Assembly (NCBI GenBank): GCA_010093745.1
Contig: MU006024.1
Location: 51,462 to 71,461, forward strand
Direction: 5' to 3'
DNA from: Piedraia hortae CBS 480.64
Lineage: Eukaryota
Length of the DNA stretch: 20,000 bases
The translations under genes were made by a program, and so were the position numbers. The stretch's first letter is position 1. Each line of letters opens with the position of its first letter. The notes below the pieces were generated by a model. The model was not told the DNA's origin. It worked only from the letters and a program-made list of their open reading frames with translations, and made no database searches. Positions 11,931-19,792 of the stretch are shown in pieces.

Positions 11931-12438
11931 GGGCAGTGGGTGGCCACAGCGGTTCGGAAAAGGATACACAGAAATACCGCAGTAGGAGCCAATTGTCGTG
12001 CGGTCAACGTCTACGGGCTCCCCGCAGCGCGTGGGCGTCTGCGGCTAAATTTGCAAGCGCCGACCAATCAGCTTGGCGACTGCCAAGTTATTGAGAGCGC
12101 TTCACATGAGCGCTTATTCCCTCTACGATAAAGGGTAAGGTACACGTCCAACGTGTCAAGGGACGTTACGAGCGTCCACGGTGACGCAGATTTTCTTTGT
12201 GTTCCCCCTGTCTTTGTGTCACAAAGGACTGTTCTCTCCTTTTTTTTTTTCATTCTCTTTTGTTAAAGACAGCCAAGGGCCTCACTTTCATTTACTGGAT
12301 TTTCTTGCTGGCAAGATCTTGACAACTCATCTCAGGTTGGACTACTTGGACTTTAATTTATTCCGGAAAAACCAACCGCAAGAGCCGCAGGTACGGGAAG
12401 CCAAGGGACGCCAACCAACGCTCGGACGAATCTCCCTT

Positions 12439-14388
12439 ATGCACGGGCCCGCAATGCCGCCGTATTCCATCTACAACAACCACGACAAAAGCCGGACGGC
12501 AACGACATTCGTTAATGGCAGTTTAGGGCGCGTAGCCGCTCGCGCTGCGCAACCGATTCCTAGTCCTTATAATCCACACGCACCGCCCACCGACTTTGGC
12601 GACATGAACCGGGTCAATTCGTCGTCGGCCGCGCTGGTCTACAGTTTTGGCCTGGCCGGCGTCGATCAGTCGATGAACTTCCTCTTTGCGGATGCCATTA
12701 TCATTTCATTTTGCGCCGTCCTGGGCATCACAATCATTTACCGTTTAACGACCCGAATAAACTCATATTTGCGACTGCTCTTCACCATGAGCGGTACCAC
12801 CGACCAGCGGTATTGGTCGCACAACCACGGCAACCTTTGGCCAAAAGTCAAGAAGCATCTGCTGTATGCGCCGCTGGGCAGACAGCAACACAACCGCGAG
12901 ATCATGCTCAGCCGGACACATCACATCGACATGGGCACGCTGCCGGGGCGATACATGTCGATATTAATATCAATGTACGTCTTGTCGAATCTGGCATATT
13001 GTCTCGCGCTGAGCTGGCATCGGAAAGAAAGCTCCAGCGTGATTGCCGAACTGCGCGGGCGGACGGGCGTCCTGGCGATTGTGAATCTCATCCCGACGGT
13101 CCTGTTCGCGCTGAGGAATAATCCACTCATCCCGCTGTTGGGCGTCAGCTACGACACTTTTAATCTGATGCATCGATGGTGCGCGCGGCTGGTGATTATC
13201 CAGTCGGTGCTGCATACCATATGTTGGGCAGTTAATGCGATTCGGGCGGGCGGGATGGAGCATGTGCGGGTTGAACTGGCGACGTCTTCGTCGTATGCCG
13301 GCGGTATGGTGGGAACAGTGTTGTTTGGGACCATATTGATCGCCGCCTGGAGTCCTGTTCGTCACGCCTTTTACGAAACCTTTATCAATGGTCATCGCAT
13401 CATGGTAGCCATTGGTCTGGCTGGCATCTGGGTGCATTTGGATCACGCAAACCTCCCGCAGTTTCCTTATGTCGCGTTTTGTGTTGGCATCTGGGCCTTG
13501 GAGCTCGTTTGGAGAACCGGCCGCATTGTCGCATACAACTACAGCCGAAGACGCGGCGTCACAAAGGTCACTGTTGAGGCACTCTCTGCGGAGGCATGTC
13601 GGGTGACGTTCAACCTGCGACGACCGTGGCGGTATCAGCCCGGCTGCCACGTGCACGCCTATCTACCGACCTACGCCCTGTGGAGCAGTCATCCGTTTTC
13701 GATTGCGTGGGCAGAGAATGCCAACACGGCCATCATGACCGATACCGAGATGGAGAAACACACTGACGTCGACGTGGTGCAGCCAGCAGTAACGTCCATC
13801 AGCCTCATCATTCGTGCGCGAGACGGCATGACAAGAAAGCTATACGACAAGGCGTCAGCCCGGCCCAACGGCAGACTAACAACATGGGGCGCCATTGAGG
13901 GTCCATATGGCGGCCACTCGCCCATGACCAGCTACGGCACAGCCATCCTCTTCGCCGGCGGCGTCGGCATCACACACTGCATGGGCTACGTGCACCATCT
14001 CGTGCGACAATACCAACTAGGCACATCCTCCACCCAAAAAGTGCTATTAGTCTGGTCAGTCCCAAACACAGAGGCGTTAGAATGGGTCCGACCGTGGATG
14101 GACACCATTCTGCGCATGGAAGGTCGAAGAGACGTGCTGCGAATCCAGCTCTTTGTCACCAAACCGCGCCACCGCGGCGAGGTCATCAGCAGTACGGGCT
14201 CCGTACAGCTGCATCCAGGTCGGTGTAATCCGACTACGATTTTGGAAAAGGAAATGAGAGAGCGCATTGGGGCTGTGGGCGTTACCGTCTGTGGGCCTGG
14301 TGCCTTTGCTGATAGCGTCCGCGCCGCTGTGCGGGATGTTGTCACTGATGGATTCATTGATTTCATGGAAGAGGCTTTTACTTATTAA
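12439..14388 (+). CDS. Ferric/cupric-chelate reductase (FRE/NOX flavocytochrome b family), ~649 aa
   Basis: Heme-ligating His pairs FNLMHRW..SVLH and INGHRI..IWVH, FAD motif HPFS, IEGPYG, NADPH motif LFAGGVGIT, VCGP, and C-terminal EEAFTY. First in-frame ATG is 12439 (12454 is an alternative); the ORF-track start at 12181 is GTG followed by T-rich UTR-like sequence. Confidence 0.93.
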   Translation: MHGPAMPPYSIYNNHDKSRTATTFVNGSLGRVAARAAQPIPSPYNPHAPPTDFGDMNRVNSSSAALVYSFGLAGVDQSMNFLFADAIIISFCAVLGITIIYRLTTRINSYLRLLFTMSGTTDQRYWSHNHGNLWPKVKKHLLYAPLGRQQHNREIMLSRTHHIDMGTLPGRYMSILISMYVLSNLAYCLALSWHRKESSSVIAELRGRTGVLAIVNLIPTVLFALRNNPLIPLLGVSYDTFNLMHRWCARLVIIQSVLHTICWAVNAIRAGGMEHVRVELATSSSYAGGMVGTVLFGTILIAAWSPVRHAFYETFINGHRIMVAIGLAGIWVHLDHANLPQFPYVAFCVGIWALELVWRTGRIVAYNYSRRRGVTKVTVEALSAEACRVTFNLRRPWRYQPGCHVHAYLPTYALWSSHPFSIAWAENANTAIMTDTEMEKHTDVDVVQPAVTSISLIIRARDGMTRKLYDKASARPNGRLTTWGAIEGPYGGHSPMTSYGTAILFAGGVGITHCMGYVHHLVRQYQLGTSSTQKVLLVWSVPNTEALEWVRPWMDTILRMEGRRDVLRIQLFVTKPRHRGEVISSTGSVQLHPGRCNPTTILEKEMRERIGAVGVTVCGPGAFADSVRAAVRDVVTDGFIDFMEEAFTY

Positions 14389-14402: not shown

Positions 14403-15062
14403 TCAGCGTTTGGCTAGGCCGGCGGTGGCTTTGCGTCCGAATGTTATGCTTCGGGGGAGCATTCGCAATGAAGAGAGGGAGGTTGTTATCTCCGTTAAGT
14501 CGTCTACGGCGTCTGTTTTATCGTCGTTTTTGACGTCGTTCTCGACACCTTCGTCCTTAGCATTCATTTTCTCTGCAGACTTCTCCTCCGTCGTAGTCGT
14601 AGGCGTCTTCCCATTCTCCTTCTCCGTGCTCGTCATCGTCGTAGTCTTAGACATGTTCCCCTTCCCCCCGAGTCCCTCTAGTGGTCTTCCCCCAAATCGT
14701 CCTGGGAGTCTCGCCCCCTCAAGGCCACGGTCAACAACCCCCCACCCCCAACCCCACGGATACCCATGCTTATCAATACAATGCAACCTCCTCCTTCTCC
14801 CATCTCGACAAACCTTCTCACACCCCTCGACGAAACACCTATAAACTTTCTCTCCCCTCGCCCGCTGCAAGGAAACAAAAGGATCGTGATGCTCGCGGAT
14901 GTGGAGGTCCAGGATATGGGTGGCAGGGAAGATTCTTCCGCACGCGAGGCAGGAGGGGGAAGGATGCTCCGCAGGCACGGGGACGGAGGAAGGGGAGAGG
15001 GAAGTGTATTTATGCGGAGGGGGGGAGGAGGGATGGGAGGGGGAGGGAGCTCGTTTTGGCAT
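14403..15062 (-). CDS. ZNF511-like C2H2 zinc-finger protein (219 aa)
   Basis: CLACGRIFPATHILDLHIREHHDPF...RARGEKVYRCFVEGCEKVC...RRRLHCIDKHGYP is the characteristic ZNF511-family finger pair. The C-terminus LSSLRMLPRSITFGR is also family-like. ATG at 15062. Confidence 0.85.
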   Translation of the reverse strand: MPKRAPSPSHPSSPPPHKYTSLSPSSVPVPAEHPSPSCLACGRIFPATHILDLHIREHHDPFVSLQRARGEKVYRCFVEGCEKVCRDGRRRRLHCIDKHGYPWGWGWGVVDRGLEGARLPGRFGGRPLEGLGGKGNMSKTTTMTSTEKENGKTPTTTTEEKSAEKMNAKDEGVENDVKNDDKTDAVDDLTEITTSLSSLRMLPRSITFGRKATAGLAKR

Positions 15063-15599
15063 ATGATTCCCTGGTTTTGTTTGGGGGATCGGATATAATG
15101 CGCTAGAGTCCGGGTTGGAAGCTATTTGGTTGTTGTTTTGCGGGGAGGTATATTGTTCGAGCTGATGGAAGTGTTTGTGCGTACGCGAGGTAGTTTGGAA
15201 CGGGGAATAGGGTTGCCAAGGGCACGTGAGGAGTCGAGATGTTTTCGGGTATCAACTGTGAAGTTTCTTTACGGATTGGTCGGCCTGGGTCCTATCTGGT
15301 GCAATGATTGCGATCCGCTAAGGGGTGAGAGCTAATGCTGCGTTCGGGACGATTCTTGTCTAAGACATTTAATAGTCTATATAAAAGTGTCTGGATCATC
15401 GTTACGTTCGCAGATTGGGTGCACTTTGGCTGATGACTTTGGACAGCAGACAGATCTTAGTCGATATAAGAAGTCGCAACGTATTCCCCATGCTCTAAAC
15501 TCTCCTCAACACGGACTACAGCACGTTTCTCTCAGGAAATTATGTGGGTGAAGGCAGGCTGCTCACTGCGCTTCTACCATGGATAGTGCCTGGGCCTCA

Positions 15600-15900
15600 C
15601 CAGTCCCGACTCCCGATGCCCTCCATGAGTTTGTGCACATTAGTGCTGCCTTGGGACTGGTGATGCCAAAAGCCTTCAACGGAAAAGTTACACCTCATCA
15701 TGAGGCGCATGAGACTGTACCATTGTATGTTCGCCGCTGAGAAGGTGAAAAACAGAGGCGGTATGCGGACACAACTCTCCAGCTCATGGCGTTTACGGTT
15801 CCAGAAAGGGCATGTGAAATATCTGCAGACTGTGAAGCCGTCTTCTTCAGTCCTGCCAAACTTCTTCATGATATGGGTGTACCCTCAAGCAAATATCGTC
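15600..15900 (-). mobile_element. Helitron Rep (Helitron_like_N, Helitron2/Helentron-type) relic with internal deletions
   Basis: Minus frame TCPFWNRKRHELESCVRIPPLFFTFSAANIQWYSLMRLM matches the Rep motif-1 region (GT.P.W...R.EL....P.LF.TFSAAD.QW..L). GFWHHQSQGSTNVH is a decayed HUH motif 2 (W.R.EWQ.RGS.H.H). Confidence 0.75.
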
Positions 15901-15949
15901 TACGTGCCAAAACACGGACAGAAGCCGATCGTAGCCCCGGGGCCCGGTT

Positions 15950-16175
15950 GAGGGTGGCAGACTTGTAAATGTGTTGTGCTGGGATCTCTGCCAGCGAGGG
16001 GATGTTCTGCAGAGCATCTCGATATGTGGCCTATGCGATGGTCATGTATGCTTCGTCAACGACAGTTCGCGCCAGTCTGCTCTCAGCGACCAGACGCAGG
16101 ACATATCTTCGAGAGAAGGGTGTGCCGGCGTGTTCGGCGCCGACCAAGACAACCGCAGCATCCTCACCCGGGCTG
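15950..16175 (-). pseudogene. RecQ-type SF2 helicase fragment (motifs Ib-II-III) of a TLH-like gene
   Basis: AAVVLVGAEHA...RLARTVVDEAYMTIA*ATYRDAL...QHIYKSATL. The DEAH box is decayed to DEAY (16046-16063), there is a stop at 16031-16033, and SAT lies at 15953-15961. Confidence 0.85.
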
Positions 16176-17211
16176 CGTCGATGAGATCGAGGTGTTGTTG
16201 TGTTGTCGAAGGGAACTTCACCTTGACGATGGCCACCGAGATCTGTCTCCAGGTTTTCACCGTCAAAGGCGCGACGCCGGCAGTAACACTCTCCACCTTC
16301 AGGCAGTCTTTCAGGGAGCCGTCCGCCCAAACAGCATAGTGTCGCTGCCAAAAGAAGGGCATGGACTGCGTCTGTGGGTCGGGAACGCGGAGGCTGGCGT
16401 TTCGCCATGGTAGGACGTAGATAATGTACTTGAGGAGAAGAGCGCCGTCAGACTCTGTGAGGAAGTGGACGCTCATTCGCGCCCGCCTCGTTGTCGACTG
16501 CCTTTTATGGTACCTCGCGAGCACCAAGACGCTGCTATCATGGAGCAGGACGCTGCGGAGACCATCCGTCGTGTTGTGGACGGTCATTGTGAGGAACTCT
16601 GCCCCACGCAAGGGCTGCCCTGAGGAGAGGCGAATCAGGGGGGGGGAGTGTGCGGAGGAAGTCTTAGCAATTGGCCTCGTAGTTCGTGGCTATGGTGGAT
16701 CTGATCGCTATGCGGCCGCCCGCCCGGCCGGGACAGCCACTCCTACCTGAGGTCGTCCGTGGTGACGATACACTTCGTGACGGCCTGATTAGCGGTGTCG
16801 AGCACCGGCCCATTGGCCGGCTTATCGACGAAGGAGTGGTTCATGGCGGTCATTGAAATGTTGTCGACAATATCGGTGGCACCAATCGTCGGAAAACGCT
16901 GTCCGAACATGATTTTTTTTTTTTCGGGAGAGCAGTCTGTCGGCCTCGTACTACATTTCCCTGATGAGCTGGCGGACCACGTCCATGGAGGCTCGGGTTG
17001 CCTTATACATGACCGTGGTCTGGCCAACGTACCAGATGGCCTCATTTGTGCTGATGTCCGGGCGGGTAGCCGCCCGGATGTAAGATCGCCAGCGCAGAAG
17101 CGACGACATTGGCGTTGCCGGTCCCTGTGACAGGTATCGGTGGCACACCTCCATGAAAATCCCCTGTCGATCTGCCTGGTCTGTCTCCTCCACGAAGACC
17201 TTTGCTACCGT
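16176..17211 (-). pseudogene. N-terminal/central region of a telomere-linked-helicase-like gene (fragment B), with tyrosine-recombinase-like motifs
   Basis: TPMSSLLRWRSY...W...MY....SMDVVRQ; IMFG..P.I....VDNIS...HSFVDKPAN; YEANC*DFLRTL / LIRLSSGQPLRGAEFL...HN....RSVLLHD..V....YHK...HFL.....LL.YIIYVLPW...FFW...W....L...L......LTVKTWRQISVAI. Stops at 16664-6, 16743-5, 16951-3; frameshifts at G9 (16638-46) and T12 (16913-24). Confidence 0.8.
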
Positions 17212-17700
17212 TATCGCTTGGACGTCCCAGATCAGTCCGGACGGCGAACTGGTGAAATTACGTCCCTCCATCCACGCCACAAGCCTATCCACATGCCATA
17301 GCCCGTTGCTAGGCTCCTTGACAAAGCTGTACCATTCGACGTGTTTCGAGATGTTATCAGTTAGCTGCCTAATGTTGATGTGGCACTCAAAGCCATACAA
17401 AAGTTTCTCAGTTGAACTTTTGCTTTTGCTGTAGCAACATGGCCAGTTGCTCGAATTGATCCATGGTCATAGACTCGTTGCTCTAGGCTAGGTTGATGCC
17501 ATCATCGGACCAGGCAGTACGGAAAGTTGAGCCTTCAAAATTCCTTGCTTGTATTTGTGTATGCAATGCATGTAATATTGTTGTCAATATGCGAGGGTAA
17601 GGGTGCGAAACGGGGTTAGTTCCACGTCCGCATGATTTTTTAGGAAAATCGCGACTCATCGTCCAAAATGTCGTGTCACCGGTGAGGATCTGCATATTCG
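17212..17700 (-). pseudogene. Second, divergent TLH-like fragment (fragment A)
   Basis: TAWSDDGINLA*SNESMTMDQFEQLA / EKLLYGFECHINIRQLTDNISKHVEWYSFVKEPSNGL...IWDVQAI repeats, at protein level only, the W..MY..SMD / IMFG..VDNIS..SFVDKPANG segment of fragment B. Confidence 0.7.
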
Positions 17701-18112
17701 TGGTTCCGCCTTCACCTTCTCCACCCTCGTAGATTATTGAGAATTTTTGTTATTCATGGTGGATATGAAGTCATGCCAAGGTTTGAGAAAGAATTTAGTC
17801 GAACAACAAGATTTATCGTGAGGGCTTCTGGAATCATTCTGCCAAGTGACAGAAGTGCATTACTGCAGTTCATTCCATCTGCTAAATTTCATCACAGTGC
17901 GCCAACTAGGGTTAGGTTTAGCTCAACGTCTCGTGACCTGGTGCGTCGTCCAGCCAAATTCTTTCAGAGGGCGGCAGAGGGTGAGTGTTTTTTGCTTGGA
18001 CGGAAAGAGACTGACGAGACAAAGGCCCTTGCGGCTCGACAAAGACTGGGGCGGAGAAGGAAACACGCATGTCGGCGCCGGGCGCAAGCATCCGAAACAA
18101 TTGGGCCAATCG

Positions 18113-19792
18113 ATGCGCCTGTCTATGAAAGAGGGCGACGCGACAGACCACGGGCACGATGGGAATGGCGGGCCTGGTTGGCAGGGGAAGCCGGCACTGC
18201 AGGTGATTTGTCTCGGGGCATCGGGCGGGCCCAGCGAGGAGGGCGTGACGGGGTTTCTGGTGCGATCGGTGGAGAGCGCGTGGGCGCGTGGCTCTTTGCT
18301 GGCCGTCGACGCCGGTTCGCACCTGGGGCCCATAACACGCATCCTGGAACGCGATTTTCCGCTGGTTGCCGATGCGGCGCGGTCCGATACACGCCGTCTG
18401 GACTCTCTAAGCCCGGGACCGAGTTCCGCAGACGAGTCAAAGGGCCGGCCGGCACTGCCCGACGATCCCCGAGCCCGAGCCCGAGCTTTATCGGCCGTCC
18501 ATACGCGTGGTCCGTTTGCTGGTGCGAAGCTGCCAAATGCGTCGGCGCGAGCCAACGCGTTGCATATCCTGCGCTCTTACATCTCCACCTACCTGATCAC
18601 GCATCCGCACCTGGACCATGTCTCGGGATTTGCTATAAACACGGCCGCTTTCCATGCCACATCGCGACCAAAGACACTTGCTGCCCTGCCGAGCACCGTC
18701 GACGCCATCAAGCGGCACATCTTCAACGATGTCATCTGGCCTAACCTGTCAGACGAGGACGGCGGTGTCGGTTTTGTGACGTTTCAGCGTCTCAAGGAAG
18801 GCGGAGATGTGATGATGGGCGAGGGCGAGGGCCGCGGCTATCTAGATGTCGTCGACGGGCTCGGCGTAAGGGCGTTCAAGGTGTCCCATGGCGTGTGCAC
18901 CAAGAGTCCGCCCAGCCACCATCACCGCGGCAGCATCGGCGAAATGCAGCCGCTGAATGGCGATGGCCCAGCACCACCTCCAGGTCGCTCGTTCTCGAGC
19001 CCCGGAACGCCACGTGCTAGCATCTACGGCCAGCAGCAGTCACCACGAGTGAGCATGCAAGGCCCGCAGGCGTCTCCCGGCATGTCTGCGGTCGAAGGAT
19101 CGTGCGTAGTCGACAGCACCGCCTTCTTCCTGCGCGACACGGAGACGTCGCGGGAAATCTTAATGTTTGGCGATGTCGAGGCCGACTCACTGTCGCTGGC
19201 GCCTCGCAACCGCATCGTATGGCAGGAAGCAGCACGCAAAGTGATGCTCAACAGCCTCGGCGGTATCTTTATCGAATGCAGCTACGATGATTCACAAGCA
19301 GATGCAATCCTGTTTGGCCATCTTTGTCCGCGACACGTCGTGGCTGAGCTCCAAACCCTGGCTTCGTTTGTGACAGAGCTGCGTACGCCCGAACAAGGGG
19401 GTAACAAACGCAAACGATCTACGTACGAGTCTGTTGCCCAATACGCAGTCAACGACCACGGCACAAAGCGCAGTCGCAGTTGGGCGCGCGGGTCCAGGCT
19501 GCTTGCGGACTCGCGCAGGTATAGCGTGCCAGACCCGCGGTCGAACCCAGCTACGCCAGAGCCCGAGGACGCGCCGTCGCCGTTCTCCGGAGGCTCGCCT
19601 TCTACAGCCCTACGCGATCTTCCGCTGGCTGGCATAAGGGTATACATTATCCATATCAAAGACCCCATGAAAGACGGTCCGCCTGCGAGTGACCGCATCC
19701 TCGCACAATTACGAGACCACGAAGCCGCGCTCAACCAGCCGCTGGGCTGTGAGTTTGTCATTGCGCGGTCTGGAGAAAGTTATTGGTTTTGA
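18113..19792 (+). CDS. PDE1: Low-affinity class II cAMP phosphodiesterase (metallo-beta-lactamase fold), ~555-559 aa
   Basis: ALQVICLGASGGPSE..VTGFLVRS, LLAVDAGS, class II signature YLITHPHLDHVSG, HIFNDVIWPNLSDEDGG, VSHG, MFGDVEADS, IFIECSYDDS...LFGHLCP, IIHIKD. First in-frame ATG is 18113 (18125 is an alternative); the ORF-track start at 17846 is GTG. Confidence 0.95.
   Translation: MRLSMKEGDATDHGHDGNGGPGWQGKPALQVICLGASGGPSEEGVTGFLVRSVESAWARGSLLAVDAGSHLGPITRILERDFPLVADAARSDTRRLDSLSPGPSSADESKGRPALPDDPRARARALSAVHTRGPFAGAKLPNASARANALHILRSYISTYLITHPHLDHVSGFAINTAAFHATSRPKTLAALPSTVDAIKRHIFNDVIWPNLSDEDGGVGFVTFQRLKEGGDVMMGEGEGRGYLDVVDGLGVRAFKVSHGVCTKSPPSHHHRGSIGEMQPLNGDGPAPPPGRSFSSPGTPRASIYGQQQSPRVSMQGPQASPGMSAVEGSCVVDSTAFFLRDTETSREILMFGDVEADSLSLAPRNRIVWQEAARKVMLNSLGGIFIECSYDDSQADAILFGHLCPRHVVAELQTLASFVTELRTPEQGGNKRKRSTYESVAQYAVNDHGTKRSRSWARGSRLLADSRRYSVPDPRSNPATPEPEDAPSPFSGGSPSTALRDLPLAGIRVYIIHIKDPMKDGPPASDRILAQLRDHEAALNQPLGCEFVIARSGESYWF

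Follow-up and report, generated by a model that had tools for sequence, protein, structure and literature searches.

What does the conserved middle domain in fungal telomere-linked RecQ helicase (TLH) proteins do, and may the genes which encode them move between chromosome ends on their own? This question is raised by a broken gene in a stretch of 20,000 nucleotides from Piedraia hortae CBS 480.64 (contig MU006024.1, positions 51,462 to 71,461), referred to below as the window. More than two decades of cataloguing TLH genes at the chromosome ends of fungi have left their conserved middle domain without a function; in the part of a 2024 survey available to us it is called just "the TLH domain" (bioRxiv 10.1101/2024.02.27.582403). 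An earlier, sequence-only reading of the window had proposed that a TLH-like relic carries motifs of a tyrosine recombinase (YR) fused to a RecQ helicase, and that such genes may mobilize themselves. The explanation which we favor, with moderate confidence, is that the window holds the relic of a TLH-type gene whose intact members carry a YR module together with a cognate site and excise and integrate between chromosome ends. The YR reading offers a testable idea of how TLH genes spread among these ends, and an intact-looking YR with a candidate cognate site brings the question of the TLH domain within reach of bench experiments.

A decayed TLH-type gene and its relatives

Homologues were sought with a 215-aa frame of the relic (16042-16689, minus strand) in an exhaustive search of 1.84 billion representative proteins; at E≤1e-3 it gave 396 proteins, of which 47 reached E≤1e-10. 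The match at 100% identity (P0001) is the window's own 115-aa product, and the best foreign match stands at E 7e-27 and 44% identity; in many homologues of 1200-1860 aa the matched stretch sits at about residues 600-780. A word-index search with the same frame found no relatives of greater length, and Pfam recognized nothing in eight frames of the relic except a weak Helitron match, to which we return below. When 21 long relatives were examined with Pfam at E≤0.01, OrsD was found in 18 (16 of them above the cut-off), DEAD in 20 and Helicase_C in all 21, while RecQ_Zn_bind gave one weak match only. Pfam assigns nothing to the roughly 700 residues between OrsD and the helicase; the "TLH domain" lies at about residues 600-830 and is followed by DEAD and Helicase_C. 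Read in order, the intact protein of about 1500 aa comprises paired C2H2 fingers (OrsD), a helical region, the putative YR module, a RecQ-type helicase and a Cys-rich tail. Published TLH proteins, according to the accessible text of the 2024 survey (bioRxiv 10.1101/2024.02.27.582403), share a three-part layout of paired C2H2, a conserved domain and a RecQ-type helicase. None of the source records of the homologues is labelled TLH, the names given being "DNA 3'-5' helicase", "superfamily II DNA helicase RecQ" and "hypothetical protein", and the TLH identity therefore rests on architecture and telomere linkage.

Intact relatives were found by scanning metagenome contigs, which yielded 67 loci related to TLH. 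Ten of the 38 loci examined for open frames retain one of 1455-1517 aa, counted from the first Met; in the rest the frame is broken, some of them having stops in place of Gln and Trp codons. Perfect TTAGGG units occur at least twice in 3 of the 67 loci, and two contigs end, downstream of the gene, in telomeric arrays, L057 in TTAGGG repeats and L003 in degenerate ones. At least two same-strand copies are present in six loci (L008, L022, L023, L033, L035 and L036), and in L050 the gene is followed by a degenerate tract and then by the 5' block of the next unit. Among the metagenome loci the family is multicopy, tandem and, in some loci, end-linked, not single-copy and syntenic as a refutation of the sequence-only reading would have required. 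In these respects it resembles the published TLH genes, in which paired C2H2 motifs, a domain of about 250 aa and a RecQ-type helicase go together and which are multicopy, often decayed and in some cases followed by downstream telomere repeats; the copy in the window differs from them in being internal and broken. The contig ends of L001, L005, L006, L009, L012, L014, L032 and L038 carry long C-free tracts on the gene's strand, and these look like mutated telomere repeats, that is, TTAGGG with G-to-A changes.

Judged by its sequence, the minus-strand segment 17277-15854 of the window is an inert pseudogene fragment of a TLH-type gene. It was mapped by tblastn with 12 homologues and by hmmsearch of a 535-position TLH profile on the three minus-strand frames, and its pieces proved to be colinear with one ancestral protein and spread over all three of these frames. 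The damage amounts to 3 frameshifts, 3 in-frame stops, a deletion of about 190 codons and the loss of both ends. The first segment (16921..17277, minus strand, like all those that follow; profile positions 50-169 of 535, E 1.8e-28), with a stop at 16951-16953, corresponds to the helical region just upstream of the catalytic domain in intact relatives and resembles the core-binding domain of YRs. The second frame takes over at 16731..16919 (profile 168-231, E 1.7e-8) and the third at 16646..16723 (profile 234-259; E 0.13, weak alone but colinear), the latter with a stop at 16664-16666 and representing the helix which runs into box I. The fourth segment (16195..16638; profile 262-408, E 5.6e-49) covers two thirds of the YR-like catalytic domain, counted from its start. 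One frame change falls at a run of T12 (16913-16924), another near 16727, where the sequence is GC-rich, and the third at a G9 run (16638-16646).

The motifs named by the sequence-only reading were all recovered on the minus strand, namely GQPLRGAE at 16620-16597, YHK at 16512-16504, TWRQISVAI at 16254-16228, VVDEAY at 16063-16046 and SAT at 15961-15953. Within the first of them box I reads LRGAE (Arg 16608-16606, Glu 16599-16597); the translated YHK would supply the hairpin lysine, and the WR of TWRQ (16251-16246) the second arginine. An arginine that is invariant in the family (R669 of the homologue P0012) is replaced by His in the relic, within SVHFL. The profile match ends at position 408, short of H436 and Y445, and at the deletion junction (16174..16207, no strand assigned) tblastn skips from residue 776 to residue 967 of the homologue P0005 across 33 nt. 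Residues of about 777-966 of P0005 have no counterpart, so that the YR domain lost its acidic loop, its catalytic His and Tyr and its last part, and the gene also lost the linker and helicase motif I; the earlier claim that the distal His and Tyr and motif I disappeared in a deletion near 16175 was thus borne out. The fifth segment (15854..16174), identified by tblastn, is a fragment of the RecQ-type helicase core matching homologue residues of about 967-1095, a stretch which Pfam calls DEAD; it contains motif II (VVDEAY), a stop at 16033-16031 and motif III (SAT). Homology stops at about 15854, and Helicase_C and the C-terminus are missing. Altogether the relic is short of about 390-430 codons at the N-terminal end and about 450 at the C-terminal end. 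The relic is not heavily AT-mutated, as its G+C content is 53-58%. Lacking the 5' site module described below, the zinc fingers, the catalytic His and Tyr, motif I and the C-terminal half, the window copy can do none of the recombination proposed in this work. The 115-aa product P0001 on public record was considered as a live small gene, and this was rejected, as the piece is internal to a frame of 1500 aa. The colinear map, the 396 relatives and the TLH-type architecture of the homologues together uphold the assignment as a TLH-like relic, and the value of the window copy is that of one more independent, non-telomeric trace of the TLH family.

Predicted fold and putative catalytic residues of the middle domain

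Two template-free AlphaFold models were compared by VIA-align with 48,161 PDB representative chains, one of a 362-aa relative, built on a 35-row alignment (pLDDT 76), and one of a 535-aa piece of an intact metagenomic frame, built on 59 rows (pLDDT 87.7, pTM 0.81). The shorter model matched XerA at Z 12.6 (rmsd 3.1, 153 residues aligned), followed by XerH at 10.1, Cre at 9.8 and XerD at 9.3, and rows 1-30 of 50 all belong to the YR/type IB topoisomerase fold class, with row 31 down at Z 3.6. The rows of this class include Xer, Cre, phage and transposon integrases, Flp, type IB topoisomerases and protelomerase, as well as Ndc10, QRICH1 and MrpR/SroF, which we take to be members of it. The longer model gave XerA at Z 11.3, XerH at 9.7 over 241 residues including the N-terminal domain, and Cre at 8.9 over 227. 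XerH, Cre, IntI and the Tn1549 integrase align with it over 217-241 residues from model residues 1-26, but at an rmsd of 4.7-6.5; the XerH and Cre alignments start in the upstream helical region, the expected place of a core-binding domain, where unrelated helical bundles also score Z 6-7. With both models Foldseek placed XerH and XerA on top, at E values of only 6e-3 to 4e-2. The Atlas leads for the middle domain are PF00589 (0.83), NDC10_II (0.82) and DUF3435 (0.81). Taken together, the predicted structures support a tyrosine-recombinase fold for the TLH middle domain. Protelomerase was considered as the nearest kin and rejected, TelA scoring Z 3.8 and TelK Z 3.4 against 9-12.6 for Xer and Cre.

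Residue conservation was counted in P0012 numbering. Among the 150 matches listed 84 cover the domain, and removal of 4 split matches left 80 aligned homologues. Box I and its surroundings are nearly invariant (R623 in 77, E626 in 79, N634 in 78, R639 in 78), and so is the lysine of the following YHK (Y654 in 74, H655 in 70, K656 in 79), which comes directly after the modelled beta-hairpin strands. Further downstream R669 is kept in 79, W741 in 60 (with Tyr in 18), R742 in 79, H785 in 77 and Y794 in 78. In a second alignment, of 10 translated loci and 49 proteins, R274, R290, K307 and R393 never vary, and H436 and Y445 are present in at least 90% of the rows; additional family-invariant Asn and Arg residues are present in this 59-row alignment. 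The order of residues in the family is Arg ... Lys ... Arg ... His-x8-Tyr, with His and Tyr nine residues apart, and the same spacing of nine residues is found in Cre, lambda Int and XerD. The claim that the R, K and WR of the relic are the first three YR catalytic positions upstream of a RecQ-type helicase is thus backed by the fold and the residue conservation of the intact relatives, and the latter also have the YR fold and the conserved distal His-x8-Tyr in structure search and alignments, on which the sequence-only reading had staked its case. As to the complete YR constellation R...K...HxxR...H...Y that it had invoked, Arg, Lys, Arg, His and Tyr were found and the His of HxxR was not, Ala, Ser or Gln standing in its place.

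At the level of sequence, the family profile was compared by hhalign with the aligned 13 recombinases of E. coli K-12. The local alignment sets the second Arg, His and Tyr in register with XerD, and the extended and global alignments also pair the box I Arg-x-x-Glu and the hairpin Lys with it, an Ala lying opposite the HxxR His of XerD; the E values of 0.0025 (local) and 0.00034 (global) hold for one comparison.

Several observations speak against a recombinase and need to be set beside this evidence. Foldseek returned no row at E 1e-3 or better, and the stretch from His to Tyr was modelled poorly (pLDDT about 45-58). The position of the HxxR His is occupied by Ser in 24, Ala in 21 or Gln in 18 of the 80 homologues, and an acidic insert, 10-20 residues long, lies between the second Arg and the family's His. 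The hhalign probability is just 8-16%. No Pfam recombinase family matched any of 35 members at E≤10 or any of 21 long ones at E≤0.01, DUF3435 and DUF3504 gave no match in the 35, and a profile search of PDB sequences gave 0 matches at E≤10.

One may thus ask whether the YR-like domain is a DNA-binding fold only, domesticated like Ndc10 or DUF3504, in which case the palindrome described below would be a promoter or a silencer bound by this domain or by the zinc fingers. Ndc10 (Z 5.0-5.6) and QRICH1 (Z 5.3) are indeed among the fold matches, the absence of the HxxR His would fit, and the distance of the site from the ATG (about 360-480 nt) suits a promoter element. However, Ndc10 reaches only about half the score of active Xer, Cre and integrases, and Crypton-derived domains that were domesticated no longer have the catalytic Tyr and the second Arg, as far as the part of the Crypton paper at hand goes (PMC3212892), whereas TLH retains both. 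We regard this possibility as very unlikely. The alignments support the view that the TLH domain, unlike domesticated non-catalytic recombinase relatives, keeps near-invariant Arg, Lys, Arg, His and Tyr, and from these residues and the modelled fold we infer that TLH proteins may be active recombinases working by covalent 3'-phosphotyrosine catalysis.

Compared with Xer, Cre and the phage integrases (PF00589), the TLH domain would share the catalytic fold, perhaps a helical domain ahead of it, the canonical residue order and the His-x8-Tyr; it differs in having no sequence-level membership, no first His of the pentad and an acidic insert, and in belonging to a single protein of 1500 aa that also contains zinc fingers and a helicase. 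It also departs from the published account of TLH, which in the consulted part of the survey gives the domain no fold or function (bioRxiv 10.1101/2024.02.27.582403), whereas here it appears as a recombinase module. Full-text searches, which did not extend to subscription papers (among them Rehmeyer 2009) or bioRxiv supplements, found no literature that connects TLH with tyrosine recombinases; papers in which "TLH" and "tyrosine recombinase" occur together concern a Vibrio gene or an unrelated effector, and one that mentions telomere-linked helicases along with integrases is unrelated in the part consulted. Nor does a TLH-recombinase link occur in the portions seen of a Zymoseptoria repeat survey (PMC4522978), the Crypton paper (PMC3212892) and a 2026 CryptonA paper.

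The candidate site and the possible mobility of intact units

If TLH proteins recombine DNA, a site may be expected next to their genes. The search for it used no preset motif and took the commonest 10-mer within 700 nt upstream of each ATG in the 26 loci with upstream DNA. At 14 of these 26 loci four half-sites share one geometry and lie between -505 and -353 relative to the ATG. The first two are inverted, their starts being 11-17 nt apart; a third half-site comes after 53 nt and a fourth after another 23-24 nt. Shuffled controls gave 2-4 sites and never the geometry. The 5' block as a whole runs from a conserved lead-in through a palindrome of 12+1+12 nt, a further 20 nt or so, and one to two telomere-repeat units in either orientation to two direct right half-sites. 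The five-base core of the half-site varies by lineage (for example ATTCC, AAACC, AAGTG, ATTTG, AAATG), and the core of a given lineage recurs in the direct half-sites with at most 1 mismatch in all 12 distinct loci. The arms of the palindrome are complementary in 90.3% of cells, 10 of the 12 pairs having changed on both sides; this complementarity was reached by 0 of 500 shuffles, and slid controls gave 29-51%. Seven contigs start 7-48 nt ahead of the palindrome block, and in L008 and L036 a near-identical block is preceded by unrelated DNA, which marks a sharp left boundary. On the right, close copies lose similarity 3-36 nt past the stop codon, and the sequence beyond varies by lineage.

A bacterial system offers a comparison. 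According to the part of the Tn4430 paper that we could use (PMC2847244), the TnpI site consists of two inverted core motifs and two directly repeated accessory motifs on one side, and the same recombinase binds them all. The 5' block of TLH is alike in that its inverted pair is followed by direct half-sites 53 and 23-24 nt further on. It differs in that TnpI is bacterial, shows no sequence homology to TLH as far as tested and serves cointegrate resolution, the binding of TLH being in our case deduced. On these grounds, that is, the arrangement of the half-sites and its likeness to the TnpI site, the palindrome with its half-sites is a candidate cognate site of the TLH protein.

In the scenario that we propose, the TLH protein would bind the half-sites of its own unit, and DNA would be cut and rejoined at the palindrome via a 3'-phosphotyrosine intermediate, the two direct half-sites possibly serving as accessory sites, like DR1 and DR2 for TnpI. 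Recombination between directly repeated sites might then free the unit as a circle, which could integrate at the site of another unit, i.e., at another chromosome end, and the helicase may aid strand exchange or replication. One site per unit fits such excision of circles from head-to-tail arrays followed by integration at the site of another unit. Self-mobility of TLH is plausible.

Not all of the data are easily reconciled with this scenario. The four-site pattern is missing from 12 of the 26 loci, two of whose contigs begin inside the block and ten of which show none of it. Elsewhere in 16 loci the half-sites gave scattered single matches only, with no second cluster and none at the right end, and no defined right end of the units was found. 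In the loci examined we saw no excision product, no pair of empty and filled sites and no target duplication. Moreover, in Magnaporthe, helicase-associated repeats (HAR) with telomere-like motifs stop 181 bp before the TLH start codon and have a discrete boundary to unique DNA; the paper, in the part available, likened them to yeast X elements and placed all 11 TLH copies near telomeres (PMC1635262). Because all 11 copies are near telomeres, homologous recombination between ends could also explain the spread of TLH.

Some of the same observations would suit an active YR module which serves the host. Such a module might process chromosome ends, for instance by nicking or resolving structures at the subtelomeric palindrome so that break-induced replication starts once telomerase fails, with TLH having spread by ordinary end recombination. 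TLH genes adjoin telomeres, a role in telomere maintenance has been discussed, and the fission-yeast copies are expressed in telomere crisis, as stated in the accessible portion of PMC1635262. One to two telomere-repeat units inside the 5' block, a single site cluster per unit with no right-end site, and the fold shared with protelomerases, though at low scores (TelA Z 3.8, TelK Z 3.4), may be read in the same sense. On the other hand, the core covaries by lineage in all four sites, which is a better fit to a protein recognizing its own unit, and the left boundary is sharp, with unrelated DNA past it. Dead copies are common, a full frame being present in 10 of 38 loci, and Magnaporthe ends without TLH propagate stably, again by the part of PMC1635262 that was accessible. 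We thus consider a host role rather unlikely.

The proposal of self-mobility may be carried further. It is our tentative suggestion, held with less than even confidence, that TLH units are an unrecognized superfamily of eukaryotic mobile elements of about 5 kb, with one gene (zinc fingers, YR and RecQ helicase) and one cognate site, which excise as circles and integrate at other ends. If true, such an element would explain telomere linkage and amplification upon telomerase failure, and internal relics such as the window copy would be rare off-target or rearranged copies. A recombinase-helicase class would then join eukaryotic mobile DNA, and selfish recombination would be tied to telomerase-independent end maintenance.

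A YR-type enzyme as the candidate mobilizing protein is a feature which TLH would share with other fungal elements, i.e., Cryptons, Starships (with their DUF3435 captains) and DIRS/Ngaro. However, no helicase is present in any Crypton described in the part of PMC3212892 consulted, whereas the TLH helicase is fused in the same frame; the Starship captains differ in that none of 35 TLH members has a DUF3435 match, the Atlas lead of 0.81 being the only one; and TLH has no reverse transcriptase and a single site cluster instead of two ends. The HAR of Magnaporthe (PMC1635262, in the part seen) are similar in being upstream repeats with telomere-like motifs and a discrete boundary, and the comparison drawn in the same portion of that paper extends to the yeast Y' elements (Y'-Help1), which likewise are subtelomeric helicase units in head-to-tail arrays with telomere-like tracts in between.

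Individual units showed some further peculiarities. In the palindromes of L001 (49-93) and L021 (353-397), two units that are 84% alike, the three central bases are reverse-complemented, TGT versus ACA, with the arms unchanged, and the difference is a flipped center rather than a set of point changes. In L020 (1-458) a 94-nt direct repeat (1-94 = 365-458) flanks the 5' block of the unit; this block terminates in TTAGGGTTAGGGTT and contains three half-sites in direct orientation, with no clear inverted partner. Upstream of the left boundary of L036 (4150-4570) the opposite strand reads like an alpha/beta-hydrolase gene with a GHSLG-type elbow, so that this unit appears to adjoin an ordinary gene or to truncate it. 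About 1.1 kb between the head-to-tail units of L022 (3900-5030) reads like a second frame, charged and coiled-coil-like, where other lineages have degenerate telomere-like tracts, and in L014 (4880-4940) a 19-nt motif is repeated three times in tandem just past the stop codon of an intact TLH frame.

Arrival of the window copy and its surroundings

How the relic came to its present position is a separate question. It lies in about 2.9 kb of non-genic DNA, and it is doubtful that it inserted itself there. Between 15000 and 18000 only short repeat pairs of a size expected by chance occur, with no terminal repeats or duplications beyond chance, which weighs against self-insertion. The relic stretch is contained in two sequencing runs of one organism with 0 differences, one contig spanning 14000-18058, and no insertion polymorphism is visible at the relic, as both runs are identical, which gives no help to this idea either. 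Among RNA data sets none is listed as containing the stretch.

Passive relocation seems at least as likely as arrival by its own recombinase. The copy might have come by Helitron capture, by ectopic recombination or repair with subtelomeric DNA, or by an old rearrangement followed by deletions, and taken together we consider such routes a serious possibility, if somewhat short of an even chance. What is left is a fragment without both gene ends and without the 5' site module, and the region of 15000-18000 has none of the repeats that an insertion might have left. A TTAGGG dimer is absent from the whole 20-kb window, even with one mismatch allowed, which agrees with the earlier statement that the window has no telomeric repeats and would also fit passive arrival. 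In addition, the broken 3' end of the relic is directly joined, on the same strand, by a 95-aa frame (15597-15884, minus strand) that resembles the N-terminal part of Helitron Rep and lies outside the TLH gene. The Pfam match of this frame to Helitron_like_N stands at E 0.079 and 13.6 bits (cut-off 28.9), and 23 of the 30 nearest clusters among its Atlas neighbors belong to the PF14214 set (score 0.91). However, the Helitron assignment is weak, being below the Pfam cut-off, a sequence search with the 95-aa frame found no relatives, and Helitron ends were not identified; moreover, decay following a true insertion could remove the same features. Remains of two repeat families, TLH and Helitron-like, seem to lie together in this interval, as in a small graveyard.

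On one side the interval is bordered by a gene for a class-II cAMP phosphodiesterase (17822-19792, plus strand; PF02112, E 1.8e-49), and on the other by an open frame with C2H2-like motifs (14403-15251, minus strand), the evidence for the latter being motifs only, as Pfam gave no match. Of the two flanking genes named in the sequence-only reading the phosphodiesterase was thus found, and the label "ZNF511" comes down to the C2H2-like frame. Nothing connects the relic with the ferric-reductase gene (12139-14388, plus strand; Ferric_reduct, FAD_binding_8 and NAD_binding_6) that lies two genes away from it.

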